In this document: in pieces, positions 4,049 to 64,000 of the stretch
How positions within the stretch are numbered: position 1 is the first letter of the stretch
Layout: every line of letters begins with the position of its first letter
DNA from: Chiloscyllium plagiosum
Lineage: Eukaryota
Assembly (NCBI RefSeq): GCF_004010195.1
Contig: NC_057717.1
Location: 104,598,937 to 104,662,936, forward strand
Reading direction: 5' to 3'
Length of the DNA: 64,000 bases
Program-made: the position numbers and the translations under genes
The notes under the pieces: generated by a model
The model's database searches: none
What the model was told of the DNA's origin: nothing
The model's input: only the letters and a program-made list of their open reading frames with translations

Positions 4049-5000
4049 ATGGATCTGAAGGTGGAAGCGCAGCGGGTGATGGCCGTCGCCCTGGGTAAGA
4101 TGTACAACTCCCGGCTCCAGAGGGGAGGTGTCCGGCTACACAAGAGCCTCTTACTGTCGCTGGTGCTGCGCAGCGCCCGGGACATTTACCTGAACGTCAG
4201 GGCCGAGCAACAGCAGCAGGAGGCTGGACACGCTCAGCAAACAGAGGCCGGGGCCATGGAGGTGGACGTCCGGTGTGAGGAGGGGCAGGGAGGAGCCCGG
4301 CTCGGAGGCAGTCCCCGAGGCGAGGAGTCCAATGTGGCGCCCCGGCAGGGGGAGTGTATCCAGTCCCGGCAGGGGGAGTGTATCCAGCCCCGGGAGTGTA
4401 TCCAGCCCCGGGAGGGAGGAATGTATCCAGCCCCGGGAGTGTATCCAGCCCCGGGAGTGTATCCAGCCCCGGGAGTGTATCCAGCCCCGGGAATGTATCC
4501 AGCCCCGGGAATGTATCCAGCCCCGGGAGGAGGAATGTATCCAGCCCCGGGAGTGTATCCAGCCCCGGGAGTGTATCCAGCCCCGGGAGGAGGAATGTAT
4601 CCAGCCCCGGGAATGTATCCACTGCGGCCGAGACAATGTATCGGATCCGGGACACAGTGGCTCCTCGGTTTGCCCGGCTTCATGCCCCAGCCAGCGGCGT
4701 CTGGGGACAGCAAGCAGCCCCGGGCCGGAGCCGGAGAGGAGCCGAAAGCGGAGGAAAGCCTGGGAACAGAGGGACTGCCCTGACTCCGGGTGCCTGCCCG
4801 TAAAGAGAGCCCGCCTGGAGGACGGGGAGTCCCGGAGGCCGGCGGAATCCACCTCCAGCCTGGTCTGTGCCCTCGGCTCCGGCTTCAGCGGTATCCTCGG
4901 CGATTCCCCCGGGGAGCAGCCGGTGTCCCCGGGTCATATCTGCCGGGACCGGGCGCTCAGTGAGCTGGGCAGCTGGCCCCGAGCCATCGTGGCGTATTGA
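4049..5000 (+). CDS. IER2: Immediate early response 2 (IER family), intronless. About 316 aa after removing one extra G at 4414-4416; as written the CDS is frameshifted.
   Basis: The N-terminus [47 protein letters not shown] (ORF 3932..4783 frame, ATG 4049) is the conserved IER domain. The C-terminal IER motifs ([29 protein letters not shown]) lie in the +1 frame (ORF 4275..5000). IER2 rather than IER5/IER5L is supported by the SRE promoter and by adjacency to the CACNA1A 3' end, as in human. Confidence 0.88.
4341..4621 (+). repeat. Coding minisatellite inside IER2: 14 units of 18/24 bp encoding (E)CIQPR
   Basis: TGTATCCA recurs 14 times (4355 to 4614) with spacings 24,18,25,18,18,18,18,18,24,18,18,24,18. 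Confidence 0.95.
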
Positions 5001-13461: not shown

Positions 13462-15080
13462 GTTGGAAGATTGGAAATTGGCTAATGTGGTGTCATTTAA
13501 GAAAGGCTGTAAGGAAAAGCCAGAGGGAACTATAGACCAGGTGAGCCTGACATCAGTGTTGGGTAAGTTGTTGGATGGGATCCTGAGGGACAGGATTTAA
13601 ATGTATTTGGAGATAAAGGACTGATTAGGGATGGTTAACATGGCTTCATGCATGGGACATCATGTCTCACTAATTTGATTAAGTATTTTTGAGGAGATGA
13701 CAAAGAATATTGATGAAGGCAGAGTAGTAGATGTTGTCTGTATGGACCTTAGTAAAGCATTTGACATAGTTCCTCATGGAACACCAGTTATTAGGTTAGA
13801 TCAGATGCGATCCAAGGAGAGCTAGCCAATTGGATACAAAACTGGCTTGAAGGTAGGAGACAGAGGGTGGTGGTAGAGGATTGCTTTTTGCACTGAGACC
13901 TGTGAGGAGCAGTGTGCTGCATGGATCGGTGCTGGGTCCACTACTTGTCATGATTTATATAAATGATTTGGATGTGAAAATGGGAGGAATGGTTAGTAAT
14001 TTTGCAGATGACACCAAAATTGGTGGTCAGGGAAGAAGATTATTTCAGAGTACAACAGGTCCTCGATTAAATGGGCCAAGGATTGGTAGATGGAGTTTAA
14101 TTCAGATAAATGTGAGGTGTTGCATTTTGATAAGGCAAATCAGGGCAGGACTTATACACTTCTTTGTAGAGCCCTGGGGAGTGTTACTGAACAAAGAGGT
14201 GCAGGTGCATGGTTCCTTGAAAGTGGAGTCACAGGTAGAGGGGCTGGTGAAGAAGGCATTTGGTATGCTTGTCTTCATTAGTCATAACATGTCCAAAGAT
14301 GTACAGTTTAAGTGGATTGGCCATGCTAAATTGTCCATAGTGTGCAGGTTAGATGGGTTAGCCATGGGAAAGGCTAATACAGGTATAGAATATGTCTGTG
14401 TTGGATGCTCTTTAGAGGATCAGTGTGGACTTGATAGGCTGAATGGCCTGCTACCACACTGTGGGGATTCTATGATTGAGTACAGGAGTTGGGAGGTCAT
14501 GTTGTGGCTGTACTGGACATTGGTTAGGCCACTGTTGGAATATTGCATGCAATTCTGGTCTCCTTTCTATCGGAAAGATGTGAAACTTGAAAGGGTTCAG
14601 AAAAGATTTACGAGGATGTTGCCAGGGTTGGAGGATCTGAGCTATAGGGAGAGGCTGAACAGGCTGGGGCTGTTTTCCCTGGACCATTGGAGGCTGAGGG
14701 GTGACCTTACAGAGGTCTATAAAATCATGAGGGGCATGGATAGGGTAAATAGACAAAGTCTTTTTCCTGGGGTGGTGGAGTCCAGAGCTAGAGGGAATAT
14801 GTTTAGGGTGAGAGGGGAAATATTTAAAGGGACCTAAGGGGTAAGCTTTTCACACAGAGGGGGGTGAGTGTATGGAATGAGCTGTCAGAGGAAGTGGTGG
14901 AGGCTGGTACAATTACAGCATTTAAAAGGCATCTGGGATGAGTATATGAATAGGAAGAGTTGAGAGGGATATAGGCCAAGTGCTGGCAAACGGGACTAGG
15001 TCAGACTGGAATGATTGGTCAGTGCGTATGAGTTGGACTGGCGGGTCTGTTTCCGTGTTGTCTGTCTGTCTGACTCTGTG
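13462..15080 (+). mobile_element. CR1/HER1 LINE RT region and 3' end, decayed, interrupted by an HE1 SINE piece (~14285-14475)
   Basis: Motifs EDWKLANVV, GSVLGPLL..IYINDLD, FADDTKIGG, RPLLEYCMQFWSP, LERVQKRFTRMLPGL, with several frameshifts. Confidence 0.9.
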
Positions 15081-18962: not shown

Positions 18963-20855
18963 CAGTGCAATGCCCCCTCAGGGTGGGACGGTGCAGCGCC
19001 TCCTCAGGGTGGGACGGAGCAGTACCCCCTCAGGGTGGGACGGTGCAGCGCCTCCTCAGGGTGGGACGGTGCAGCGCCCCCTCAGGGTGGGAGGGTGCAG
19101 CGCCCCCTCAGGGTGGGACGGTGCAGCGCCCCCTCAGGGTGGGAGGGTGCAATGCCCCCTCAGGGTGGGACGGTGCAGCGCCTCCTCAGGGTGGGACGGT
19201 GCAGCGCCTCCTCAGGGTGGGAGGGTGCAGCGCCCCCTCAGGGTGGGACGGTGCAGCGCCTCCTCAGGGTGGGACGGAGCAGTACCCCCTCAGGGTGGGA
19301 CGGAGCAGCACCCCCTCAGGTGTGGGAAGGTGCAGTGCCCCCTCAGGGTGGGAGGGTGCAGCGCCCCCTCAGGGTGGGAGGGTGCAACGTCCCCTCAGGG
19401 TGGGAGGGTGCAGCGCCTCCTCAGGGTGGGACGGAGCAGTACCCCCTCAGGGTGGGACGGTGCAGCGCCCCCTCAGGGTGGGATGGTGCAGCGCCTCCTC
19501 AGGGTGGGACGGTGCAGCGCCTCCTCAGGGTGGGACGGAGCAGTACCCCCTCAGGGTGGGAGGGTGCAACGTCCCCTCAGGGTGGGATGGTGCAGCACCC
19601 CCTCAGGGTGGGAGGGTGCAGCGCCCCCTCAGGGTGGGAGGGTGCAGCGCCCCCTCAGGGTGGGACGGTGCAACGTCCCCTCAGGGTGGGACGGTGCAGC
19701 GCCCCCTCAGGGTGGGAGGGTGCAGCGCCCCCTCAGGGTGGGAGGGTGCAGCACCCCCTCAGGGTGGGAGGGTGCAGCGCCCCCTCAGGGTGGGACGGTG
19801 CAGCGCCCCCTCAGGGTGGGACGGTGCAACGACCTCTCAGGATGGGAGGGTGCAGCGCCCCCTCAGGGTGGGATGGTACAGTGCCCCCTCAGGGTGGGAG
19901 GGTGCAACGCCCCCTCAGGGTGGGATGGTGCAGCGCCCCCTCAGGGTGGGACGGTGCAGCGCCCCCTCAGGGTGGGAGGGTGCAGCGCCCCCTCAGGGTG
20001 GGAGGGTGCAGCGCCCCCTCAGGGTGGGAGGGTGCAGCGCCCCCTCAGGGTGGGAGGGTGCAGCGCCCCCTCAGAGTGGGAGGGTGCAACGCCCCCTCAG
20101 GGTGGGATGGTGCAGCGCCCCCTCAGGGTGGGACGGTGCAGCGCCCCCTCAGGGTGGGAGGGTGCAGCGCCCCCTCAGGGTGGGAGGGTGCAGCGCCCCC
20201 TCAGAGTGGGAGGGTGCAGCGCCCCCTCAGGGTGGGATGGTGCAGCGCCCCCTCATGGTGGAATGGTGCAGCGCCCCCTCATGGTGGAATGGTGCAGTGC
20301 CATCTCAGAGTGGGAGGGTGCAGCGCCCCCTCAGGGTGGGAGGGTGCAGCACCCCCTCAGGGTGGGAGGGTGCAGCACCCCCTCAGGGTGGGTCGGTGCA
20401 GTGCCCCCTCAGGGTGGGATGGAGCAGCGCCCCCTCAGGTGTGGGAACGTGCCGTGGCCCCTCAGGGTGGGAGGGTGTAGCGCCCCCTCCGGGTGGGTCA
20501 GTGCAGCACCCCCTCAGGGTGGGAGGGTGCAGCGCCCCCTCAGGGTGGGACAGTACAGCACTCCCTCAGGGTGGGACGGAGCAGCACCCCCTCAGGTGTG
20601 GGAAGGTGCAGTGGCCCCTCAGGGTGGGAGGGTGCAGCGCCCCCTCAGGGTGGGATGGTGCAGCGCCCCCTCAGGGTGGTACTGTGCAGCGCCCCCTCAG
20701 GGTGGGACTGTGCAGCGCCCCCTCAGGGTGGGATGGTGCAGCGCCCCCTCAGGGTGGGACGGTGCAGTGCCCCCTCAGGGTGGGTCGGTGCAGTGCACCC
20801 TCAGGGTGGGAGATTGCAGCGCCCCCTCAGGGTGGGAGGTTGCAGCGCTCCCTGA
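18963..20855. repeat. GC-rich minisatellite, 26-bp unit GGTGCAGCGCCCCCTCAGGGTGGGA(C/G/T), roughly 70-73 copies
   Basis: Seen directly. The ORF track shows a 26-aa period, equal to 3 units. Confidence 0.97.
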
Positions 20856-22130: not shown

Positions 22131-23829
22131 AAAATCAGCACCTTATTAATTCAAGCTTCTGTCAGTCAGGCCCATGCAATCATTAGTATCCACACATGGA
22201 CAGCAATGAAGAACTGTGTCATCAATGTCCCTGCAGGTGCTGGCTCCACAATTCTGTGATCAATTACAGAGTTTCCACATGCTGCTTGTCAATAAATGGA
22301 AGGAGATTGTGTATAGTTTATGGGCAAGTCAGCTGTAGTCGTTCCACCCCCCCCACCCTTCCTCAGCGAGCTGGGTGTTACCTCAAACTTCCTGTTCAGT
22401 TAATGCTTCCCTTATACTGCATGAGGCAGGGCCGGATCTGAAAGCAGACCATGTGGGCAGCTGTGCTTTCACTGCTATGGCTCTTCAATGAAGGGAAACC
22501 AGTGCTTGGGTGTAAGAGAGAGACAGCCCTCTGTATCTGCAGCATCTGCCCTGACCTGGGATGTCCCAAAGCAAGTTACAGCTGATGAAGCACCTTTCTG
22601 CTTTGACGTGGAGTCACTGTTGTTGTGTAGGAACTGTGGTAGTGAACTATTGCAAAGCAGCTCCCCAAAAGGGCTGATTCCCTTAACTCTGAAAGATAGC
22701 ATGTACTTGGCAGCGCAGCACTCACTCACTCCGTCATTAAAGGTGGATTTCTGGGCTCACATTTCTAGAGTGGAATTTTAGCAGACAACCTGCCCCTGAC
22801 GGAGTCACTGCTGTTTACTTGTTCATTGACAGGATGTGGGTGTTGCTGGCTGGGCCCAGCATTTCTTGCTTACTCCTGGCCTGCCCTGGGGAAGGAGAGT
22901 GGGTGAACTGCCTTCTTGAACCGTGGGTGGGCCACGGTTCACGTGTTCCAGAGAGAATCCCAGGATTTCAGTTGAGGTTAAGAGCCGGATATTCACTTCT
23001 TTTTTGAGTTGGAAGTAAACGCTTTCTTTCTGAAATTTGTTTTTCTTTTCTCTCTGTTTAATTTTCGTTCTTATAGCGTTCAGTGAATGAACTGAACACA
23101 ATCAGGAATGACTTTTATTCCTGTTGCAAGAAATCTAGGAAATGCTACGTCAGTCTTCCTTGACTATTGCTCTATATTTACTAAGGCAAAAACATCTTGC
23201 TAGAGAATTGGCACCACGTTTTATTGTGAATATCTTTGTCCCAGGAACTCATATCAATGGGAGTCCTCACTTTTCCTTTACTCCAGCTCTCTGCATCTTC
23301 TCAGCCACTTGCACACTTCGTGGGATCTTACCCTGCAGATATCAGGCATGGACTACAGTGCATTGCACAGAAAACCCTGACTATTGTGATCTGTGGACTG
23401 GAAAATGCACGATCCGTCACAGAGAAGCAGAAAACAGAGATAGTGGGAATTATGACCTTCCTTGCTGTATTCACTCTCAAATGGCAGTCCCTTGGTTTCA
23501 CTGTCCTGGGACCTGACAGTCCTCTGACCTTCTGCCGTGTAAGTGTTAGGCCATTACCTGTGGACTGAGTGTGTTACAGAGCAAAGCTGTATTGATGTAG
23601 AGCTTCTCACAGACAGTACAGTGTAGTCACTGTCATATGTCCAACAACAGCAGCCAAGCCAAAACCTGATAAATTAACTGAGAATTCTGTTCCTGTGGAG
23701 AGAACACATTACTGTATAATGCTGGGACATTGGGTGAAAATCCTTTCCAAAAGTCAAACCAAGGAGTAATGTCCTTTTTAAAAAAAAACTGCTTGGCAAT
23801 CTTTGTATTTCAAATAAGACATCATATTC

Positions 23830-24732
23830 CCTCCAACAGTGCGGCACTCCCTCAGCACTGATCCTCCGACAGTGCGGCACTCCCTCAGCACTGACCCCCA
23901 ACAGTCTGGCGTTCCCTCAGCACTGACCCTCCGACAGTGCGGCGTTCCCTCAGCAGTGACCCTCCGACAGTGCGGCACTCCCTCAGCACTGACCCTCCAA
24001 CAGTGTGGCGCTCCCTCAGCACTGACCCCTCGACAGTGCGGCACTCCCTCAGCACTGACCCTCCGACAGTGCAGCGTTCCCTCAGCAGTGACCCTCCGAC
24101 AGTGTGGTGCTCCCTCAGCACTGACCCTCCGACAGTGTGGCGCTCCCTCAGTACTGACCCCCCAACAGTCTGGCGTTCCCTCAGCAGTGACCCTCCGACA
24201 GTGTGGTGCTCCCTCAGCACTGACCCTCCGACAGTGTGGCACTCCCTCAGTACTGACCCCCCCAACAGTCTGGCATTCCCTCAGCAGTGACCCTCCGACA
24301 GTGTGGTGCTCCCTCAGCACTGACCCTCCGACAGTGCGGCGCTCCCTCAGCACTGACCCCCCAATAGTCTGGCGTTCCCTCAGCAGTGACCTCCCGACAG
24401 TCCGGCGTTCCCTCAGCACTCATCCTCCGAAAGTGCGGCATTCCCTCGGTGCTGACCCTCCGACAGTGCGGCGCTCCCTTGGCGCCGACCCTCTGACAGT
24501 GCGGCACTCCCTCAGCACTGACCCTCCGACAGTGCGGCGTTCCCTTGGCGCTGACCCTATGATAGTGTGGCGCTCCGTTGGCGCTGACCCTCTGACAGTG
24601 CTGCGTTCCCTCGACGCTGACCCTCTGACAGTGCAGCGCTGACCATCTGACGGGACGGCGCTCCCTCGGTGCTGACCCTCTGACAGTACGGCACTCCCTC
24701 GGTGCTGACCCTCTGACAGTACGGCGCTCCCT
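23830..24732. repeat. Minisatellite, 33-bp unit CAGTGCGGCACTCCCTCAGCACTGACCCTCCGA, about 27 copies
   Basis: Seen directly. The ORF track shows an 11-aa period. Confidence 0.97.
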
Positions 24733-45256: not shown

Positions 45257-48200
45257 TTGACTAATTTAAGGCAGAAATTCAAGGAGCTAGGGTGGAAGCT
45301 TAGAGCTAGGACAAACACAGTTGCTGTCTCTGGTTTGTTGCCCGTGTCATGTGCTAGCGAGGCAAGGAATAGGGACAGAGAGGAGCCGAACACATGGCTA
45401 CAGGGATGGTGCAGGATGGAGGGTTTTGGATTCCTGGATAATTGGGGCTCTTTTTGGGGCAGGTGAGACCTCTACAAACAGGATGGTCTTCGCCTGAACC
45501 AGAGGGGTACCAATACCCTGGGGTGGAAATTTGCTAATGCTCTTCGGGAGGGTTTAAACTAATTCAGCAGGGGGGTGGGAACCCAATTTGTAGTTCAAGT
45601 ATATAGGAGGTTGAGAGTAGTGAGATCCAAAATAAGGTTTCAAGGTCGCAAGACGGCACTGGCAAGCAAGAAGTTGGCTTGAAGAGCGTCTACTTCAATG
45701 CCAGGAGCATCTGGAATAAGATGGGTGAACTTGCAGCATGGGTTTGTACATGGGATTTCTATGTTGTGGCCATTTTGGAGACATGGATAGAGCAGGGACA
45801 GGAATGGTTGTTGCAGGTTCGGGATTTAGATGCTTCAGTAAGAACAGACAAAATGGTAAAGAGGTGGGGTGTGGCATTATTAGTCATGGATAGTATTGCA
45901 GCTGCAGAAAGAATGGTGAGGACTCGTCTATGAAGGTAGTATGGGCTGAGGTTAGATACAGGAAAGGAGAGGTCACCCTTTTGGGAGTCTTCTATCGGCC
46001 TCCGAACAGTTCCAGAGATGTACAGGAAAGGATTCTGGATAGGAGCGAGAGTGACAAGGTAATTGTTATGGAGAACTTTAACTTTCCAAATATTGACTGG
46101 GAATACTATAGTTCAAGCACTTTAGATGGGCCAGTTTTTATGCAATGTGTGCAGGAGGTTTTCCTGACACAGTATATAGACAGGCCAACAAGAGGCAAGG
46201 CCATGATCATATTGAATGGCGGTGCAGGCTCGAAGGGCTGAATGGCCTACTCCTGCACCTATTGTCTATTGTCTATTACATTTGGTATTGGGTAATGAAC
46301 CCGGCCAGGTGTTAGATTTGGTTATATCGACCACAATTTGGTTATGTTTATTTTAGCAATGGAAAGGGACAGGTATATACCGCAGAGCAAGCCTTATAGC
46401 TGGGGGAAAAGCAATTATGATGCGATTAGGCAGGATTTAGGATGAATTGGATGGGGAAGGAAACTGAGGGGATGGGCACAATTGAAATGTGGAGCTTATT
46501 CAAGAAACAGCTACTGTGGGTCCTTGATAAGTATGTACCTGTCAGGCAGAGAGGAAATTGTCGAGTGTGGGAGTGGTGGTTTACTAAGGAAGTTGAATTT
46601 TTTGTCAAGAGGAAGAAGAAGGCTTATGTTAGGATGGGATGTGATGGTTCAGTTAGGGCGCTTGAGAGTTACAAGTTAGTCAGGAAAAACCTGAAGAAAG
46701 AGTTAAGAAAAGCCAGGAGAGGACATGAGATGTCATTGGCAGATAGGATCAAGGAAAACCCTAGGGCTTTCTATTGGTATCTCAGGAATAAAAGAATGAT
46801 TAGAGTAAGGTTAGGGCCAATCAAGGACAGTAGTGCAAATTTGTGCGTGGAGTCAGAGGAGATGGGGGAAGCACTAAATGAATATTTTTTGTCAGTATTC
46901 ACACAAGAAAAAGTCAATGTTGTCGAGGAGAATACTGAGATACAGGCTACTAGACTAGATGGGTTTGAAGTTCACAAGGAGGAGGTGTTAACAATTCTAG
47001 TAAATGTAAAAATAAGTAAGTCCCCTGGGCTGGATGGGATTTATCCTAGGATTCTCTGGGAAGCCAGGGAGGAGATTGTTGAGCCTTTGGCTTTGAACTT
47101 TATGTCGTCATTGTCTACAGGAGTAGTGCCAGAAGACTGGAGGATTGCAAATGTTGTCCCCTTGTTCAAGAAGGGGATTAGAGACAACCCTGGTAATTAT
47201 AGACCAGTGAGCTTTACTTCAGTTGTGGGAACAGTGTTGGAAAGGATTATAAGAGATAGGATTTGTAATAATCTAGAAAGGAATAAGTTGATTAGGGAGA
47301 GTCAACACGGTTTTGTGAAGGGTAGGTCATGTCTCACAAACCTTATTGAGTTCTTTCAGAAGGTGACCAAACAGGTGGATGAAGGTAAAGCGGTTGATGT
47401 GGTGGTATATGGATTTCAGTAAGGAGGTTGATAAGGTTCCCCACAGTAGGTTATTGCAGAAAATACAGAGGCATGGGATTGAGGGTGATTTAGCGGTTTG
47501 GATCAGAAATTGGCTAGCTGAAAGAAGACCGAGGGTAGTGGTTGATGGGAAATGTTCATTCTGGAGTTCAGTTACTCGTGATGTACCACAAGGATCTGTT
47601 TTGGGGCCACTGCTGTTTGTCATTTTTATAAATGACCTAGGTAAGGGTACAGAAGGATGGGTTAGTAAATTTGCGGATGACTCTCAAGTCAGTAGGGTTG
47701 TGGATAGTGCAGAAAGATGTTGTAGGTTACAGAGGGACATAGATAAGCTGCAGAGCTGGGCTAAGGGGTGACAAATGGAGTTTAATGTGGAAAAATGTGA
47801 GGTGATTCACTTTGGAAGGAGTAAAAGGAATGTAGAGTATTGGGCTAAGGTAAGATTCTTGATAGGGTAGATGAGCAGAGAGATCTCGGTGTCCATGTAC
47901 ATAGATCCCTGAAAGTTGCCACCCAGGTTGATAGGGTTGTTAACAATCCATACAATATATTAGCTTTTATTAGTAGAGGGATTAAGTTTCGGAGCCATGA
48001 GGTCATGCTACAGCTGTACAAAACTCTCGTGTGACCACATTTGGAGTATTGTGTACAGTTCTGGTCACTGCATTATAGGAAGGGTGTGGAAGCTTTGGAA
48101 AGAAACCAGAGGAGATTTACTAGGATGTTGCCTGGTATGGAGGGAAGGTGTTATGATGAAAGGCTGAAGGACTTGTGGCTGTTTTCCTTGGAGAGTAGAA

Positions 48201-50199: not shown

Positions 50200-53100
50200 A
50201 CACCATTATTGAAAGTCCTAAAATACACCATTTCAATGGGTTTATAAAGGCATTTGCAGACTTACTTCTCCACTAGTAAGTGATATATAAATTATTTATT
50301 CATAATATTGAAATATTATTCATCTTTCCTTTCCCCAGAAAGCTGGGGTCTTCATTTCCTGAACAGTTGGTGCAAGCTTTCTTGTCAGCAGTTCACTTGG
50401 TTGCAGCAAAGTCTGTTGTGCTGGGCAATTCATGGAGCAAGCTCACATTCCAATTTAAAATGCAGGTGTATCCTGAATCAACCACACCTGCAGAAAAGTT
50501 CCATGTGACACGTTGATAATCTTCAAATGAAAACTACAACCAATGTTTATCTATTGTCGATCTTCGATTTGTGTTTAGGCCTTAACTAAATGATAATTAC
50601 TTCAAAATCTCAGCCAGTTTTTCCAAGTTATGTCTGATGTTAATGGCCTTTTGCTATTTAAAATAAAATGCTTATTTTCAGTGTACCTCAAGCTATGAGT
50701 TGCTGTGCATGTCTGTTATTTTCATTGGTTGTGGCTGGCCAGGTTTTCAAAGAAAAGATTTTGAAACATTGACAGCAGTAATAAGCTTCAGGTAGTTTCG
50801 CATCTGTGGCAATTTAGTCACTGCATTTAGCTTAGTCAATGGTCAGATGTTTGACCATCATAAGAGGAGATATGGTAGTGTGTAACAGTGTTTGTTTGGA
50901 AGCATATATTGAGATTGGAAGAATTTATGAAGAATGGAGTTTGGATTGTGCTGCCATTTACATTTTCAGATAAACCCATCATGAGAAGACACTAAACAGA
51001 AGATGGGTTCCTCCTTGTTTAGGGGTACAGGAGAATTTAAATCAAAGTCTTTACTGCTTTACTACACCTCCAGGACAGTCACAACACCGCAATGGCAGAC
51101 TCTATAAATAAATTCTGCCTTTATTTAGTTTGTCTGAGAAGCAGCATGTGATAGATACTTCAGAGAAGGAGGAGGAGAGGAAATATAAAATAACTTTCTC
51201 AGAGGGGAAAATAAATTAAATCAGGACTGAATCTTACTGTCAGTGAAATGGTCACTGAGATATATTTAATTCATAGCAGATATATACATTTTTGTACTGT
51301 ATATGTTCTGGAGCATGAGTGCCAATGAGAGAAATTAAGTAGGCTGAAGCATCTTCTGTCTGGCAACATCCCGTTCAACAAAATATATTCCCCTCACCGT
51401 GAAAGCTCATTATGATAAATATTGTCAAGCAACCTAGACCTTAGGTAGGAATTTGTTGCAAGTCTAATTGCATCCATACAATAACATCCATTAAATATTG
51501 GCAAAATAATACAAGAAATATATATCAAAATAAAAACAGAAGACAATATTCATCAATCTCTGACGAACTAACCCATTGTCCAAAAATACATTTAACCCTG
51601 GGAATATAAGCACATGTCCATTAAGCTGACAGTTTCCATGAAAACAATAAGACTTAAAGCTTTTTTTTTGTGTAAAGTTTACTTTTGTTGCCATTGTACC
51701 TGTGTCTAGATAGATAATTGGAATAAGTTTCAAGATGGCAGCAAGATGTATGGGTGAATCAATTTTCTGTTCTTGATATGGGACTGAACTACATAACTAA
51801 TTTTACAGCACATCTTTCAAAATTCTTTTCTTAAATGATGGAAAGGTACATTTATTAGTATGCCGCACCCATCCCACCATGTAAACTCCCCCATTTGAGA
51901 GAACGAAAGCTGAACCAAAATAAAGAGATGGAAAGCCCGATTATAAAACAATTATAAAACAATTAAAATCTCAGTTCAACACTTGGTTTGAAGTCTGATG
52001 TTCTGTCAGATAGTTGGAAAACAATGATCATTCATTTTCAACTACTTGATTTGGAAATATTTTCCTCTTTTAGTTGTATTAGAGTTTTAAAAGTAATTTG
52101 TGATTAGTTAGCCTTTTGCATCATTCACATGACTGAGTTTTTTGTGATGGCTTATTATTAAAATAGTTGTGATAAAAATATAAAAATAAGATTGCTCATT
52201 GTAGTTGTCACCACCAGACCTCACTAAATTTGTTACTGACCAAAGATATTTTTCCTTTTACTTTCCTCACATTGTAATCAGGATATTCCTAATTAGCTCC
52301 CACAGCACTGGAATATTTTATGGACGATATTCTCAGCTGTGATTCCTGCTGAAGGCATTGGAAGGTGTCTCATAGTGTACCTGTCCTTCCTAGGCAATCA
52401 AACCAGAAGTTGGTAGCTGGTTGGTACAGGTCTGGTTGGTACATCTTTTGAGCACACCATCCTTCAGAAAATTGCTCCACACAGGAGAGATTCATGAGCT
52501 AACCAGCTGCATCAAACCCCAACAAGAACATTTACATCCATTCTTTCACTCAAGTATATAAACAACAAAACTTTACACAAAAAGGTTAGGACACGATCTG
52601 GCAGCCAAGTGGATCAGATTGACAATGATGTCACAGCCGAAGCTGGAGAACAGAATGCAGTCAAAACTTTACGAGATCACCTCCATTTCAATTTGACATT
52701 TGGATGTTTTGTAATTCTCTTTTTCCTGTTGTACCCCTTTCATGTCTCAGGTGACAGTAACATAACAGTTTGTCCCTGCAGTGTCTGACAAGGTGTTTTA
52801 TATTAATAAAATTCTTCATACATAAATATATGTATCTATATATTTATATATTTCCCAGAAATTTATAAGCTCTATCTTTTGGAACTATATTAATTATAAA
52901 TTCACATCATTATCTTATTCTAAGAGAACCATTAAAGTATTTACAATAAGGAGGATGCATAGCCTTAGCAAACACATGTACACAAAAATGTGTTCATTAT
53001 TATCTTGTTGCTGTTTAAATGGTCCTGCATTCACATATTAGAAGTTTTCCCAGTATTTTCCTGCTCTTTCAGACATGCTGAGAACATGCTGATATTTTAC

Positions 53101-55859
53101 AAGGTGCTGGAGAGTTTAGGAGATGTGATACCCTTCATTGTATGTGGACTCCGTGGACAACACACCTGCACATAGCATCACAGAAATCAAAGTGACTTAA
53201 GACCTCTGCTTTACTCCATCTTTGACAGACACATTTGGCTAGTGCACATTTCTGTTGTCCCCACAGTTAGTGCTTTTGTATATTTTAAGGCTTGCACATT
53301 TTGAAAATGCTCATCTGAGGGCAGTATTGCACTGGGGATGGGTGCTGAAGGAGCTATGTGGGCTCTATATCATAGACCGTCATTTGCTATATTCTGGAGC
53401 CACACCTTCAGTATGTTTCCACGCTCCCCCCCTTCCCCCCTCACCCAGTGTTGGAAACATGCAATAGAATCCATGTTATAAAAAGACTCATGGATCAGTT
53501 CAAATGTACTGACTGACTGACAATGGATCAGGCAAGAAATATGAACCAGTGCAAGTATTTAGGCATGCTTCATAAGCCTAATTCTCCTTGTTTGTTTGCC
53601 TTCCACCTCTATCCTCTCTACTTGTCTAATATCTTGGAAGCTTAGTCAACATGAATCAGGCTCCATAGCAAAGTAAAACTAATCCTGATCTTCCAGGCTT
53701 AATGGGGAAAATAAACTGGAAAGTAAACTGAAGCCAAAACTCCAGAAAATCCAGCCTGTGCACATGGGATGTAGACAGTGATGGATACCATCTCAGTACT
53801 ACCAATTCAGTACACTAGCAAACTAGCTGCATACATATGAATTCTGATAGGGGAAAGTGAGGTTCTGATTGTACCTGTTCGGTTCCTTTTTACATCTTTT
53901 TCATGTTTATTGCATTTTGCATCAGATTCCTCCTTCGAATATTTGCCAGACCCAACCACATGCTGTGTGATTACAAGAGAATATCTTTCACAAAGTTCAC
54001 TGACAGGTCCAACATCTGGGGGTGAGGAAGGGGCAAATGGCTTTTCTCTTCAGAGACAGGTTTTTGAAAAGAAACTGCAACTGGAATGTACAATTTGAAG
54101 TTTCATGCACATTATCCCACACCCTTTTTCTCCTTTCCGTATACCTTACTGTTGTGAAACAAGAAACTTTGCTACTTTAACTCACCAAGACTCTCAAAGA
54201 ATGTCAAATTTCTCATCATCCTCAGTCTTTTCTTTGCTGTTATAATTTACAAGTTCTTAAAATGTAACCCCAATAAATCTCGCCTTGACTCCTATGCTAC
54301 CAATGTATGCAGCATCTTGGACAGATCATTTATGTCTGCAGTTGAGGGCAACACAATTAATCTGTTGCTATCTGATGAGGATAACCAGCAACTTTAAACA
54401 CAACGTCAACATGTCCTGGGCAGATGGACAATCAGGGTAAGTGAATGAAGGAAATCAAAGGATTGTACAATCTACCTGGTTGCTGGATGTTGCAATGTAT
54501 TCAGTACTGGGTAGTGATTAACAGCATTCAAGCTTATTGAAATTGGACCCCAATGCAAGATTTAAGCTAATTCAAAACCCAGACACTTGCTTGTTGTTAA
54601 AATTGTGTCCTTTAAGTTGGTTAAATAGAACTTAACCTTTTAAAGAGAAGCATGCTATTACCCAAAATTGCTTTAAAGAGGCATTAATAAATATGCAGCT
54701 TTTAATTAACCTGCAGAAAACTTGCATAACCATTTCCCCACCTCCCCATCACACTGTGCCTGCTAAGATTTAGCAAATTTGGAGATGCTAGACTGAGCTG
54801 AGTAAAGCAGGCACAATCTGCACAATCCTTAATTAAGGAGGAAATGCAGGGAAGGAAATTTTGAAAAATTTACAAACAATCCTAATGGATTGAATCACAA
54901 AGACACAGGAGATAGTGTTTCACATAAAGCATGCACTCCGTTTTGTGCTGGGCTGGTATATTTTACTTGCTCCCATGTTCATTGTAATTGCCTTACACAA
55001 AATGATTCACCTTCCTCTGATCTTCTCATCAACCAAGAGCCCCTGGTGAGGAGGAAATTATATCCAAACTTGTTCAATTGACAGGCTTGAAAAAGCAGAA
55101 TTACAAATTAAATGGAAATGATCTCACAATAGTTAAAAAAATTAACTATTATCTGGCAACTTCCTCCATCTTACATGCCCCTCCCCTCCGCGCACAATCC
55201 CTCCCCCCTCCCCTGTACGTACGCAAAATCAAAGTGCTCTTGAATGGGGCATGCTCTTTCCATAGCGTGAGAGCTTCATGAGGATTCCATGCTGTGATAG
55301 GCTGTTCTGATGAGGCAAGAAGGCACACAACAGAACTTTCAAGCTGGTAGATGGATTTCTTATTTTTCTCTTCTCATTTGTCATTGCTTAGAGCCCACAC
55401 CTCAGAAATGACAGTAATATCGCAGGCATTCAGATGAATTTATGTGATTGAACATGTTGTGCACTGGATAACCTTCATTCCCCCATACAATATCAATATA
55501 TATTAACAGGTAACAGATGATAAAACTCATCAATGAAACCCAACAGTTTCCAAAAGTCCTTTTAGGATTTTGTTTACTTCTTTTTTCCTCTCCTTATTTA
55601 TGTTAGAGACAACTAAACCTGTTATAGGGACCCACATGAGTCGTAGTTTCTTGCAATGTCCCCATTTTGATTTATTTTTACACATGCTCCAAACCCCCAC
55701 CCAATAAAGATTAGTTTAAAATTTTTTTCAGTTTTTTTTCCTTTCTCCCATTTTTTGTTTTTTTTTCAAACTTTTTTTTAGAAGGCTAGAGCTTCTCAGG
55801 TCCTAAGAGGCCCAGAGAGTCCCCCTGACGTGCTTGGCAATGTAAGATGAATGTTAGGG
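50200..55859 (-). other. Probable long CACNA1A 3' UTR (3' end undefined)
   Basis: Follows the stop codon and has no recognisable transposon for ~5.6 kb. Candidate minus-strand AATAAA signals (TTTATT on plus) lie at 55671, 53906, 51851, ~51119 and ~50295. Confidence 0.5.
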
Positions 55860-56480
55860 CTAGCACCAGTCATCCTCATCAGTTTCACTGTAGGGTTCAT
55901 GCATTCCTTTTCTTGTGCCAGGTCCTTTTGTTTTCATCGCCCCGAGATTGTGATAGTACCCATTTGGTACTCGTCGCCCATGCCGTGAAGGGGACACAGA
56001 GGATGACGTCACCCGAGAAGTCCTGGGCGACCTTCCGGAACTTGTTGCTATGGCAGCCTCGAAGGTCAGAGTTTCCTCGCTTGGCACATCATAGTCAGGG
56101 CTGCAGTAATAGTTATCATTGTGAGATCCCAGGTAAGGCTCAGATACGTGGGAGCTGGGAGTGGACCAGCGGCTGCTGCTTTGGCGATTTAGTCGTGGGG
56201 ACTCGTTACGGGGGATGGTGCTTCTCTCCATAGCGGGAGACCTGCTGCTGCTCTGCCGCTCCCCCCTCTGATGCTCCGGGGGCGGTGGTGAGTACCTGCG
56301 TGGCACGGGGGTTGGTATCCTGCCCTGCTGTGATGTATTCATGGCTTTTCGCACCACAGGGGAGTAGGTGACATGCGGCCTAGGTGTGGAGGGAGTCTGG
56401 GGAAGTTGCCTGCGTCCGCGCCTTGGTGTGCTGGTGCCAGAAGTGGAAGGTACTGGACTCCCACTCACAGAACTACTGCC
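55860..56480 (-). CDS. CACNA1A: Terminal coding exon (equivalent to human exon 47, long C-terminus) of the P/Q-type calcium channel alpha-1A subunit Cav2.1. Upstream exons were not recognised in this window.
   Basis: Translation from the acceptor reads [46 protein letters not shown]...RRVPNGYY...[17 protein letters not shown]. This matches the Cav2.1 tail, including the RQLPQTP SH3-ligand and DDWC PDZ-ligand motifs. A polypyrimidine tract and ttttcatgtag acceptor precede it on the minus strand. Confidence 0.93.
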
Positions 56481-56640
56481 CTACATGAAAATTGAAACAA
56501 AGCAAATCAAAAAATAAAAAACCAGGAGAAAAAACACAGACAGAAAAACATTGAAGAAAGCAAAGAGATAACAAAAGGAAAAAGGGGAAGCAACGATCAC
56601 AGAACAAAAAGTCAAAAGAAAGTAAAAAGAGAAAGTGACG
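56473..56640 (-). promoter_or_regulatory. Tandem splice acceptor tag|GGCAG|TAG with a long polypyrimidine tract (CACNA1A last intron)
   Basis: The minus strand reads ...ttgctttgtttcaattttcatgtag GGCAG TAG TTCTGTG. AG dinucleotides end at 56481, 56476 and 56473. About 150 nt of T/C-rich sequence lie upstream. Confidence 0.88.
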
Positions 56641-57849
56641 TCTGTAAGTCAAGGGGTTAAAGAGAGCAGACATGTCCTTTTAGTTTACAAGGGTTTAAAA
56701 CCATATTGTTAGGCCATACACATTAAACAGTTCGGAATCTATCAAGAAAAAATGGGAAATACTATGAATGTTGGAAATCCAAAATCTAAGCAGGAAAACT
56801 GATGCTATGGATATGTTTGTAGCTGAAAGAAAAGATGGATTAATTTTTTTGGGGAGATTGGAGACCTGACCCAGGTTGAAACTGGAAACATCTGATGTTC
56901 TTCCCTTCACCTTTGGACTTGTGTATGTCAGGCCCTTAAAAATGAGTAAACCAACCTAACTGGGGAGGACCCATTCCTCCTGGAAAAGCTAACTTAGTGA
57001 CCCTTTCAGATGCTGACCGAGCCACTGTGCATTTCTAGCATTTTTTTTCAACCAAATTTTGCTAGGGAAAATTTTGCTAGGTATGTTTCCTGATGTAGAG
57101 AATATCAGAATGTAAAAGAAGTCATTTATAATAACAAAGCTATTGTACAGGTTATTTTACAGTTACATGCTCTAACCTATCTGAATCTCTGACATTGACC
57201 CCATCTAGTGCACCCACCTAAGACCCAACAAAGTCTCCCTAGTCAATCCAAATCCACTTTAGACAAATCCAAGGTGCTTCCACTCACTATTCAAGATTAT
57301 TTTGTTCCTGAACCAGGCAAACTTCATTTGATATCAATTCTATAAGAAAACTGCATTCTTTCATGACAGGTAGAGTGGAGCTGTCTTCTAGGTTAATTAA
57401 TGATATTTTCACTAATTTTAACCACCTATAAACATGCATGAGTATTACAGTCAATTTTACCCCAAATACAATGGACAAAATAAATGAGAATCTCAAAATA
57501 AAAAATATAAAATTTAGGAAAAGATAAAATTAGGTACAAATATAAAAGGACTTGGCGATATAGTCTGAGCAACTGATGGAAGAATCTTATTAGATGTAGT
57601 TTTAATTGCCTACTGTGCAAAGAATAGGAATTTTCATCTCTTCCTCACATTCAAATCTTCTCCAATACTTTGAATCCATTCCTACTATGTGTGCTTTAGC
57701 TGTTGGACTGCTGTATTTTTTATCAGTGTTTTCTCTCTCTTTCACGATGGTGCTTCCTAGCATACAGCTTCCTCGAGGACCTCAGCCCATTGAATCCTCA
57801 TTCTTCACATCTGAGAGTGAACAGTGAGCCTAGGCAGGCTGTTTGATGT

Positions 57850-58990
57850 CATAAGGCCGTAAAATATAGGAGCAGAATTAGGTAATTTGGCTCAACATGT
57901 CTGCATGGCCATTCGACCATGGCAAATGTTTCTCAACCCCATTCTCCTGCTTTCTCCCTGTAACCTTTGAGCTCCATTCTAATTAAGAACTTATCTACCT
58001 CTGTCTTAAATACACTTAATAATTTGTTTTCCACAGACTTCTATGGTAATGAGTTCCAAAGATTCACAGTCTCTGGCTGGAGAAATTCTTCCTCATCTCT
58101 GTTCTAAAGGGTCCTCTCTTCACTCTGAGGCTGTGCCCTCATGTTGTAGTCTCTCCTATTGTGGAAACACCTTCTCCACATCCACTCTCTTCAGGCCTCT
58201 CAGTATTCTGTAAGTTTCAATAAGATCCTCCTCATTCGTTTAAAGTCCATTGACTACAGACCCAGAGTGCTCAACCAATCCTCATATAACAAGCTTTTCA
58301 TCCCTGGGATTATTCTTGTGAGCCTCTTCTGGACTCTCTCCAAGGCCAGGACATCCTTCCTTAGAAATGGGGTCCAAACTGCTCACAATATTCCAAATGT
58401 AGTCTGACCAGAGCCTTAGACAGTCTCTGCAGTATATCCCTGCTCTTGTATTCTAGTCCTTTCAACCTGAGTGTTAACATTACATTTGCCTTCCTAACTG
58501 CCAACTGAACCTGTATGTTAACCTTAAGAGAGTCCAGAATTAGGATGCCCATGACCCTTTGTGCTTCAGATTTTGGAAGCCTTTCCCCATTTAGAAAATA
58601 GTCTATGCCTCTATTTTTCCTACCAAAGTGCATAACTTCACACTTCCACATATTGTATTCCGACTGCCACTTCTTTGTCCTATCCTAGCCTAAGTTCTTT
58701 TGCAGCCTCCCTGTGTTCTCAACATTATCTTTCTCTCCACTATCTTCATGTAATTTGCAAACTTAGCAACATTTCCCTCTGTTCCTTTGTCCAGATCATT
58801 AATATATAATGTGAATAGTTGTGGTCCCAGTGCCACCCCTGCGGAACTCTACTCATCACTAGCTGTCATCCTGCAAAAGACCCTTTTATCTCCACTCCCT
58901 GCCTTCTGCCAGTCAGCCAGTCCTCTATTCCTGCCATTACCTTGCTGCTAACATCATAGGCACTGCCTTATTTAGCAGCCTAAGTAGGCA
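57850..58990 (-). mobile_element. CR1-type LINE RT/3' fragment in the last CACNA1A intron
   Basis: Minus strand encodes KCEVMHFGRKN...YFLNGERL...AVRKAN.ML...LEYKSRD...LVRLHLEYCEQF, with the 3' tail at ~57850-57960. Confidence 0.88.
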
Positions 58991-61186
58991 CCCCATGGAG
59001 CATTCAGCTGAAGAAAATTCTATCCTCATGTAGTGTGTACTTACACATATACATTTTACGATGGGAGGCTTTTGGATAACGATTACCTGTAGTATGCCCT
59101 AGATGTTTCCTCCACTCCCTAGCACAGGAGAGCTGAAATGGATTGTAGCTCTCTCCTGTTACCTGATCTTTGATTTGTTGTTTTACATAGATGAGGGACA
59201 TTAAACTGAAATTATTTTAACGAATCGTCCTCTGGATACTCAGATATAGCTTCAGATGTAGCACCAATCTAGAGCTCTAGTAATATAGCATGGAGGTGTT
59301 TTCTTTGCTTGCAGAGTTTTGGAAGCTGTAGATCAATAGTTTTGATTTTCTAAGCATTGTGACTCTATTAGATTGAAGAATGTAAAGTAATGGACAATAC
59401 AGAAAACATAAACCTCAAACTTCAAATTAAATTGATAGAACAGGAGAAGTGGACAGAGTTTGAAAAGTATAAAACTAATCTCGAAGTTCTTCACATAAAA
59501 ATGAAATGGGCTTCTAGGCAGTGTAATGGAGATGGAAATTGTTTAAGGATGTACAGACGATATGATGGCAAACAATAGGCTTGTTTTGAGTGATGCACTA
59601 AAATGGTCCAAAATGATTTCAATACCTGTGCCTTACATTATGTCTCAGGTGAGGAGCAGTGATAAGAGGAGGCAAAAGGCAAAAACTAAGGGAGGGAGGA
59701 AACAATGAAGTTTTACTGTTCTACAATACTCCTAATTCAGGTGTGATCTTCAGAAGGCACCAAATAAACACCAACCTCTTATTTGAGAGTTCTCACAAAG
59801 CCGGAAATAGCTCTTATGTACTGGTTATTGGGATTCCTTGGCCCAGGAACGTGTGCTGTGATTAGTTATAGAATTGAAAGAAAATAAAGTAGATTATGGG
59901 ATTTCTTTAATTGTGAGAGTCAATGCTGGGAAGCAAGATTTATGAGATTTTTGTAATAATGTGTTAGCTCCAAACACTAACAAGTCAAGTTCCAAAGGGA
60001 CAAGAGAACCTGGGGGAGAGCAGTGTAATCAGAAGAATGGATTGTACTCATATACAGCTGGTTGGTCCCAAAATGCTTGCAACCTCCAAACCTAGCATAG
60101 TAGATGAAAATCCTTTCAGGTCAAGAACATAAAACAAACACCCAGTGTCACACCATGTCAAGAGGATTAAAACTAATAATAGTTACTGCCTTTTAATCCA
60201 CTACTCAACCAATTCAGACTCATGCATATGTCTGTGGATTATTTCAATTTTTCTCAGTTTTTGAACATTTTCAATATCTTGACTATGATAACCCCTACAC
60301 GGTTCATGGGGAATAACTAATTAATCAGTCAATGGAGCTTGTTGAGTACGAGATCCCTTGGTCATAAGCATCAGTTAGCTGAGCTGGAATTCCAGCATTT
60401 TGTGTTTATCTTTCAGATTTTCCACACCTTAGAATCATAGAAACTCTGTATTGCAAACTTTGTTTGGATTTTTCTTAATTTAAAATCCATACCAGAGAAC
60501 AATTAAATGATAAGTATGCAGTTTACTGTCATTGTCACAAAAGACAGACCTGTCTCTTAGATGTCCAAGTTATCTGATCTCAGCCAAGATGTTGTTGAGA
60601 ATTGACCTCAGTGTCTCCTGGGTTAATGAAAGGAATAAATTATTCCAATCTGTTGTTCCTGATCACGATGTTGGAATATATTTTGTATGAATAGATAGCC
60701 GGCAAAAGATGAACAATGCTTGATCATTGAATAGCCTTCACATTTCTAGAGGGGAAGCTAAAGAAATGTTAGCACTAAAAAGGGAGACAATGAGGAAGGA
60801 AATTTATTTTTTCTGACAAGTGACCTGGTCTACATCAGGAAGTGAAACCACCACCACAGTATAAATATTGCAATGTCAGCAACTGAAAGCTACATAAGAA
60901 TGGCAGCTACTGAGCATATGTCCATCCCCCATAAAGGGTATATAAGCACTGCATGGTGCCATGTGTTTGGATGTGTATTCAATGTGTATGTGGGCTCCTT
61001 CAAAGCTGAAGTGGTCTAGTGTGGAGGAAGGTAGTCACCTTTCTGGTCTAACTGGAAATGTATTGTTGAGTAAACAATATGACGGTTATTGCATTACTGC
61101 AACTAATGATGATTACATAGATGTGACCTTGTTACTCCAAAGAATGTTAGAAGCAAGTCAGCCCCATCCCCGTCTCCTAACAGCAA

Positions 61187-61383
61187 AGTTAAAAATCACA
61201 CAACACCAGGTTAGAGTCCAACAGCTTTACTTCAAAGCACTAGCTTTCAGAGTGCTGATCCCACAACCACCTGATGAAGGAGCGGCGCTCCGAAAGCTAG
61301 TGCTTCCAAATAAACCTGTTGGACTATAACCTGGTGTTGTGTGAGTTTTATTTTGTACACCCCAGTCCAACACCTCCAAATCA
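61187..61383 (+). mobile_element. Second Penelope family: fold-back element with an intact minimal hammerhead ribozyme
   Basis: Inverted arms tcacacaacaccaggtta...aagcactagctttc and gaaagctagtgctt...taacctggtgttgtgtga. Core CAC-CTGATGA(61271)-A-GGAGC-GGC-GCTCC-GAAA-GCTA-GTG. TSD TCCTA(A/C)CAGCAA at 61175-61186 and 61384-61395. Confidence 0.87.
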
Positions 61384-62591
61384 TCCTACCAGCAACATCT
61401 TGACTCTGACCAAGTCCCTTCGACATCGTCACGGTGGATGGTGCTTATTGCAGTCAATCAAATATTAATCTTTTCAGATTCAAATACAATACCTACCTCT
61501 ACATTCATTATTAGCATTCCGCCCAAAATGTTTGACTTTACAAATTCCAGCCAACTCTCAGGTTTCATTGTTCTCCCTGAAAGTGGTTCAATTTAGACTT
61601 GGAAGAATGGTAGTTTGTTGGACAGCAGATAGTTGACTCAGACTGTTTTCCTAATGGCCTGAGGTCTGTAGTTCTCTATTGCACTGGAGGATCTATAATC
61701 TCTTGTATACATTAATGATGTATCCCTATTCTTTATAGTTGTTGGTATGGCCCTTGCTATATGTGGTAGTTTTTTCTTCTTTCTTGAATGTTTGCTTGCT
61801 TTTATATCTTTTAAATGGTATCTTCCTGGAGTTTATGCACCAAATTTGCATCAGTAGAATTTGGTCCTCATTCCATCTGAAGGTTTGTCCCACAGTGTGT
61901 AGACATTATTACTTCAACTTCTTGAGCTTTCTCGTTCCCTGACAGTAGTTGAATTATTGGTGAAACTAGATTGTTTACTTCCTCAATTCTTTACCTGGAA
62001 AGGCATTCTTGCTTGATGCTGTTATGTGTCGTACTATCGTTGGGAATTCTTCTTTGGAAGGTGAGGGTGGACATTTTGCTTGACCTGATTTTTTTCTTAA
62101 ACAACTCCGCCCCTAAAGCTAGTCTTGAATTTAGAATATATCTGTTCATTTAGACAATCTGATTTAATTAAATTGCAGATGCTGTCTGTGTTTAACTTCA
62201 CACCTCTCAAATAGTGGAGATATTGCCTCTTTGCATGCACTTCACTTTGAACTTACTTCAGTTTTGATAGCAGTGGAAAAAAAATTCAGCCAAACCACTT
62301 TAGTCAAAACTTTCCATTCTCAGTTACAACATGAAATTTTTCTTTTATTCCATTATCATTGACCTCTGGAGATTTGTTTTTTTTAAACTTTTAATCTCTT
62401 TATGAGATTATAATGCTCACTAAAATTTTCTACTGCTTTTCCTTAGCTTTTGTTGGTTAATCTCTTTCTCCTTTTAAATGTGATTGACATCAATATATAC
62501 CTGTCTACTTGGTTGTGAATTATATATTTTTTTCAGCATTTTATGTCCCTGATGTTGGAGAGGTGCTTGTAGCATACCTTTAACATTAATG

Positions 62592-62827
62592 GGGAGAAAG
62601 TGAGGACTGCAGATGCTGGAGATCAGAGTCGAGAGTGAGGTGCTAGGAAAGCACAGCAGGTCAGGCAGCATCTGAGGAGCATGAGGATCGACGTTTCGGG
62701 CATAAGCCCTTCATCAGGAATTCTTCTCTTTACAATTCTTGATGAAGGGCTTATGCCCAAAATGTCGATTCTCCTGCTTCTCGGATGCTGCCTGACATGC
62801 TTTGCTTTTCCACCACCATATCTCTAT
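62592..62827. mobile_element. Penelope-derived fold-back element with hammerheads (family of 504-713)
   Basis: The minus-strand core is intact at ~62689-62717; the plus copy is mutated (TTGATGA...AAAA). TSD TTTAACATTAATG at 62579-62591 and 62828-62840. Confidence 0.87.
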
Positions 62828-62844
62828 TTTAACATTAATGACCA

Positions 62845-64000
62845 ATTTCGGTTCTGACAGGGCCACTCAGCTCCTGACTTCATTACAGCCTTGGTTCAAA
62901 CATGGACAAAAGAGCTGAATTCCAGAGATGAGGCGAGAGGGACAGCCCTTGACATCAAGGCTGCATTCGGCCAAGTGTGGCACCAAGAAACCCTAGTAAA
63001 ACTGGAGTTAGTGGGTATCGGGGGCAAACTCTCTGCTGGTTGGAGTCATTCCTGACACATAGGAAGATGTTTGTTGTTGTTGTTGGAGGTCAGTCATCTC
63101 TGCTCCAGGACATTTCTGCAGGAATTCCTCAGGGTAGTGTGCTAGGCCCAACCACCTTCAGCTGCTTCATCAATGACCTTCCCTCCATTGTAAGGTCAGA
63201 ATGGGGATGTTCATCGATGATTGCACAGCGTTCAGCAACATTCATGACTCCTCAGATACTGAAGCTGTCCGTGGCTTAGGCTGACGAGTGGCAAGTAATA
63301 TTTGTTCCACTCAAATGCCAGACTATGTCTCTTGTTGGTGATGGTCAATCTAACCACTGCCCCTTAATTTTCAATTGGGTTACCATCACTGAATCCCCCA
63401 CTATCAATATCCTGGGGTTGCCATTGATCAGAAACTCAACTGAACTCACCACATAAACACAACGGCTACAAGAGCAGGCCAGAGGCTAGGAATATTGTGG
63501 CAAGTAACTTATCTCCTGACTCCCAAAAGCCTGGCCACTATCGACAATGCACAGTCAGGAGTGTGATGGAATACTCCCCACTTGTCTGGATGGATGCAGC
63601 CCCAACAATACTCAAGAAGCTTGACACCATCCAGGACAAAGCAACCTGCTTGATTGGCACTATATCCACAAGCACCCACTCCCTCCACCACTGATGCTCA
63701 GTATCAGCAGTGTGTACTATCTACATTTGCACTGCATCAACTCACTAAGGATCCTCAGACAACACCTTCCAAACCCACGACCACTTCCATCTAGAAGGGC
63801 AGCACTTATATGGGAACACCACCACCTTCAAGTTCCCTTCCAAGCCACTCACCATTCTGACTCAAATATATGGCTGTTCCTTCACTGTCGCTGGGTCAAA
63901 ATCCTGGAATTTCCTCTCTAATTGCATTGTGGGTCAACTGACAACAGGTGGACTGCAGCGGTTCAAGAAGGCAGCTCACCACCACCTCCTCAAGGGCAAC
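62845..64000 (+). mobile_element. L2/CR1-clade LINE RT fragment, decayed, running off the window end
   Basis: Motifs ALDIKAAF..VWH, WLESFLTHRKM.VVVGG, IPQGSVLGPTTFSCFINDL, VRSVMEYSPLVW...LKKLDTIQDKA. Confidence 0.85.

Follow-up and report, generated by a model that had tools for sequence, protein, structure and literature searches.

The window, a 64,000-nt stretch of Chiloscyllium plagiosum contig NC_057717.1, carries on its minus strand the 3′ splice site of exon 47, the final one of CACNA1A (the Cav2.1 gene), from a bamboo/epaulette-type shark. Read along that strand, a polypyrimidine tract is followed by TAG, GGCAG and a second TAG, and then by TTCTGTG, an arrangement that places three AG acceptors at offsets 0, +5 and +8 (Table 1). 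Joining at the upstream AG opens a frame of 206 codons from position 56480, which is the DDWC-ending tail that a preliminary description of this DNA had read from the letters; in the frame from 56475, TAG is the first codon. Downstream of CACNA1A, on the opposite strand, lies a single-exon gene of the IER family (4049–5000, plus strand; Pfam PF05760 in two frames), which contains an internal 18-base tandem repeat coding E-C-I-Q-P-R (4374–4621) and a one-base frame shift near 4413 that probably stems from a sequence error within a run of Gs; in human, IER2 lies next to CACNA1A. The window also holds GC-rich minisatellites at 18965–20853 (26 bases × 72) and 23829–24640 (33 bases × 25) with long spurious open frames, and broken frames at 13857–14837, 46430–47771, 58254–58848 and 62858–63694, which we presume to be LINE reverse-transcriptase remnants.

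Table 1. Positions of acceptors, coding features and intronic elements around CACNA1A exon 47 (numbered from the first letter of the window)
Feature	Position	Strand	Form, role or basis
Acceptor 1 (TAG)	56481..56483	-	Exon starts 56480; long form (+47, MPI-like); join in run X3 contig
GGCAG pentanucleotide	56476..56480	-	Sequence read
Acceptor 2 (CAG, last three bases of GGCAG)	56478-56476	-	Exon starts 56475; short form (delta-47, MPc-like); join in run X2 contig
TAG, short-form stop codon and candidate acceptor 3	56473..56475	-	Exon would start 56472, MPII-like; human offset +8 (PMC10078293)
30-residue frame plus stop, opened if acceptor 3 is used	56380..56472	-	Translation
Coding part of exon 47 in the long form (206 residues; stop 55862-55860), no polyQ	55860..56480	-	
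RQLPQTP, residues 24-30	56391..56411	-	RxLPxxP-type SH3 ligand for RIM-binding protein, binding in shark predicted; motif class PMC10657410
DDWC C-terminus	55863..55874	-	PDZ ligand for RIM and Mint1, binding in shark predicted; role PMC10657410
AG-free zone, 159 bases, 80% pyrimidine	56483..56641	-	3′ end of intron 46
Branch-point-like words, far	A at 56623, 56612; 56645 just upstream of zone	-	
Branch-point-like words, near	A at 56515, 56507 (-35 and -27)	-	

The identity of the gene was established from the tail. Its 206 residues were all identical to those of Hemiscyllium ocellatum XP_060710925.1, and identity remained at 205/206 with two Chiloscyllium punctatum models and 197/206 with Scyliorhinus; the full-length shark and ray models were drawn from 120 listed of 918, plus a second listing. 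A search with the tail retrieved 193 proteins among 5682 candidates, and the best named of the 120 matches listed were P/Q-type channels, with lungfish at 69% identity; identity to bamboo-shark CACNA1B was 46%. When 22 selected tails were placed in a tree, the shark sequence fell outside both the 1B group (100/100) and the 1E group (100/99), assigning it with CACNA1A and not with CACNA1B or CACNA1E, and thereby bearing out the gene named in the preliminary description. The tail itself matched no Pfam family. One sawfish model that seemed to miss the first 12 tail residues was traced to an alignment edge effect.

Taken by itself, the motif stays within what chance allows: the window has 4 matches to YAGNNYAGTAG where 1.73 are expected, and 11 of 100 shuffles reach 4. 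We judge the site to be real because it stands at the start of an exon whose 206-residue product is shared in full with a shark CACNA1A, and because spliced contigs join at two of its three AGs. Exon 46 was not found in the window, with no matching frame in 57000–64000; since it lies outside, outside data were needed to settle the intron phase.

These data came from 4 of 24 listed public runs (X1–X4), whose contigs were compared with positions 55850–56580; two raw single-cell runs labelled with the window's species were left out. The runs are presumed to be RNA, and X2 and X3 show by their own joins that they are spliced. If exon 46 ends in codons for R-Q, a transcript joined at 56475 is predicted to depart from the genome at 56478 and one joined at 56480 at 56482. 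A 726-base contig of run X2 (99% alike, depth 7.6) matched from 56194 to 56478 and then departed, and a contig of run X3, from another shark that is about 94% alike overall, matched to 56482 before departing; both agreed with the predictions, including the first loose letters. Translated by hand, the loose ends of X2 and X3 give E-C-V/L-P-H-R, with which exon 46 closes in shark models, and those models join HRQ to GSS. The intron is therefore in phase 0, X2 represents the short form, in which Q is followed by TAG, and X3 represents the long form. The second acceptor is thus used in X2 and the first in X3, and the earlier proposal that the downstream AG ends the protein at once in phase 0 holds.

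The X3 contig differs from the window at 9 positions in all, none of them in the motif. Each run yielded one join, the short and long joins coming from different runs with different organism labels. The sole residue difference of X2, Y63N, is the allele of the two long-form C. punctatum models, which makes it likely, as far as a shared allele can tell, that both forms occur in one species. Contigs show presence only, at a depth of about 7, and so give no ratio of short to long. The preliminary description had asked for brain RNA-seq junctions from exon 46 to 56480 as against 56475 (and 56472); joins at 56480 (X3) and 56475 (X2) were found, and no join at 56472, that of acceptor 3, was seen in the contigs of the 4 runs. 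An X1 contig starts without a loose end at 56474, where an acceptor-3 join would branch, and in this one run we treat the start as a lead only. The X4 contig stops at 56464 and carries no word on the join, and no contig of the 4 runs covers the intron.

Synonymous changes made up 26 of 30 listed substitutions in X3 and 18 of 23 in X4 against 24.5% expected, and this excess indicates that the long tail is under purifying selection. DDWC and RxLPxxP ligands are described for the Cav2.1 tail (PMC10657410), and by analogy with mammals, where the binding is known, the shark long tail would bind RIM-BP, RIM and Mint1 through its predicted ligands and the short tail would not. In turtles and gull the long CACNA1A tail closes with DDCC instead of DDWC, so that the PDZ ligand is altered in these sauropsids. 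Behind the shark stop codon, an AT-rich region (about 52800–55860, minus strand) is likely a long 3′ UTR, and an A-rich stretch within it (55720–55780) could prime oligo-dT internally.

The mechanism is already known from mammals. A GGCAG insertion at the intron 46/exon 47 boundary yields the +47 and delta-47 forms (PMC2841749, PMC11580629), and three human intron ends, 13,208,054, 049 and 046, are given for MPI, MPII and MPc (PMC10078293). We read these ends as offsets 0, +5 and +8, with MPc at +5 and MPII at +8. MPI together with MPc accounts for 99% of human transcripts, and in yeast RIMBP2 and BZRAP1 bind MPI only (PMC3016911). Truncation of the tail alters trafficking, scaffold binding and short-term plasticity, and mice restricted to the short form show seizures and incoordination/ataxia (PMC8205089); acceptor choice also sets the amount of polyQ protein in SCA6 (PMC10078293). 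The shark site shares with human and mouse exon 47 the phase-0 start after H-R-Q, the GGCAG, the acceptors at 0, +5 and +8 and the immediate TAG, and RQLPQTP and DDWC are present in both the shark and the human/mouse tails. Unlike the human tail, the shark tail has no CAG/polyQ tract, its longest Q run being 2.

Of 390 proteins screened, 233 contain the end of CACNA1A exon 46. In 196 of them G-S-S comes next, 17 stop at RQ, 10 go on with V, 10 have other continuations and 0 are in the third-acceptor frame; as two of the three protein searches favoured the long tail, these counts are not frequencies. Models ending at RQ come from skate (XP_078285394.1, ending HRQ), goldfish, chum salmon, swamp eel, newt, three turtles and primates. 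Swamp eel isoform X5 is short and X1–X4 are long, and newt and the three turtles likewise have both forms; the RefSeq short isoforms are predictions. Among the shark-cluster members listed (15 of 26), the short form was absent (0/15). The H-R-Q-V endings (10/233, both Stegostoma models included) were read as intron read-through and not counted as isoforms. Axolotl X11 has a different ending after HRQ, apparently from an alternative last exon.

A short isoform is thus already in RefSeq for skate and bony vertebrates, and the age of the switch is the new part. Short-form models in skate and bony vertebrates support an origin before the cartilaginous/bony split; with both joins also present among sharks, the date put forward in the preliminary description is supported. 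PMC4527484, PMC7018710, PMC10676324 and PMC12149502 added nothing on the age of the switch, and among the matches listed in a keyword literature search, whose scope excluded most subscription papers, no paper dealt with the switch in cartilaginous fish. Short tails have been called common in Cav2.1 and Cav2.2 (PMC5958201). According to the same source, a chick Cav2.1 clone has a different ending and the long form was not found, so that some lineages may depart from this scheme.

Only two sites of the motif, the C of GGC and the T of AGT, are free to change synonymously. One alternative is that the tandem acceptor is passive. On this account the tail has to start G-S-S with both serines confined to AGY codons, which cannot drift to TCN, so that the AGs at +5 and +8 would be retained even if splicing were under no selection; the short message would be leakage with no regulated role in the shark. 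The G-S-S start in 196 of 211 CACNA1A-type proteins fits this account, as do the chance-level count of the bare pattern and contigs that give presence but no ratio or tissue figures. The X2 assembly speaks against it, having recovered the short join and not the long one at an exon-wide depth of 7.6, unlike a rare leak, and so does the codon use of the exon itself, from which GGY-AGT-AGY has a chance of about 1%, a figure calculated post hoc. Models of the short form also recur across lineages, and an RQ end reached by the +5 route would need the T of AGT, free to become C, to have been kept in every short-form lineage; the human share of MPI plus MPc cited above is a further point against leakage. 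The X2 short join, the implied retention of the T and the codon-use odds together favour selection over passive upkeep of the motif, and we consider passive persistence unlikely.

It is also conceivable that each shark lineage uses one acceptor, short in the X2 organism and long in that of X3, with no switch within a species. The single join per run is what such fixed usage would give, but contigs drop variants, the X2 tail frame is open and conserved and carries an allele shared with long-form models, and both forms are annotated within single bony vertebrates. We regard fixed usage as highly improbable.

Very probably, the tandem acceptor at CACNA1A intron 46/exon 47 has its shark ortholog in this site, which was inherited from the last common ancestor of jawed vertebrates and kept by selection. 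Exon 46 ends on a whole codon (H-R-Q). A join at the first AG keeps GGCAG and reads G-S-S into the 206-residue tail with its RIM-BP and PDZ ligands, and a join five bases on places TAG first, so that the channel ends at Q; both joins are seen in sharks. With no exon following exon 47, the short transcript is expected to avoid nonsense-mediated decay and to yield protein. CAG ranks above TAG as an acceptor triplet, and the downstream CAG is probably the stronger of the two. A single branch point and tract probably serve both AGs, which would compete at the second splicing step; AGs under 12 bases apart are known to compete (PMC1431707). As in mammals, the outcome would be anchored channels alongside tail-less ones, and regulation or function of the switch in the shark is suggested by that analogy.

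The AG-free zone at the 3′ end of the intron is the joint second longest AG-free run in the window (8770 AG positions, both strands) and exceeds the threshold of at least 150 bases for distant-branch-point exons with long AG-exclusion zones. A zone that reaches 150 bases occurs in 165 of 67,334 human introns, and large AG-free zones show no excess of acceptor isoforms (PMC1431707). The sequence of the zone is compatible with scanning that sets out from a far-off branch point, but near candidates are present too; compared with other long AG-exclusion-zone exons, the distant branch point here is only a candidate. The human intron measures about 0.7 kb (PMC10078293), and that of the shark exceeds 7.5 kb. 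With tandem 3′ acceptors in general (NAGNAG and other short-distance pairs) the site shares AGs less than 12 bases apart that compete after one tract, but here a 5-base spacing changes the reading frame, with the loss of an entire domain.

The switch may be older still. CACNA1B (Cav2.2) shares the position of the last intron, with RQ followed by G-S-G-S; its last exon starts G-S-G-S in 48 of 65 proteins, and that of CACNA1E starts G-N, G-T or G-M in 38 of 57, starts that cannot hold an AG at +5. A pigeon Cacna1b isoform B model (KAK2535094.1) ends H-R-Q-W-F-S-stop, as expected when the last exon of CACNA1B is read in the +5 frame; this is one CACNA1B model among 50 classified. When drops of 1 to 9 bases were tried, only 5 reproduced the pigeon end, and the residues allow an AG ahead of the cut; such drops could yield a random end of 3 residues 5.6% of the time. 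Unlike the immediate stop of CACNA1A, a +5 join in CACNA1B leads to a short frameshifted end. Lu and Dunlap reportedly described a 5-base Cav2.2 variant in chick in 1999. As one CACNA1B model fits a +5 join, the preliminary date may be too young: we hold the chances to be even that the 5-base switch predates Cav2.1, with an AG at +5 in the ancestral Cav2 gene kept in CACNA1A and CACNA1B and lost in CACNA1E. Convergence through the shared AGY serine is a possible source of the likeness between CACNA1B and CACNA1A.

To a specialist, the conservation of this site will be pleasing rather than surprising. That sharks use the same acceptors speaks for a tail-less channel that is ancient and favoured by selection and not a mammalian accident, and the shark exon offers a polyQ-free, repeat-free version in which to study what sets the ratio of the two forms. 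If the 5-base switch does predate Cav2.1, a single switch, working in shark CACNA1A perhaps by scanning from a distant branch point, would have adjusted channel anchoring at vertebrate synapses from a time that preceded the genome duplications.
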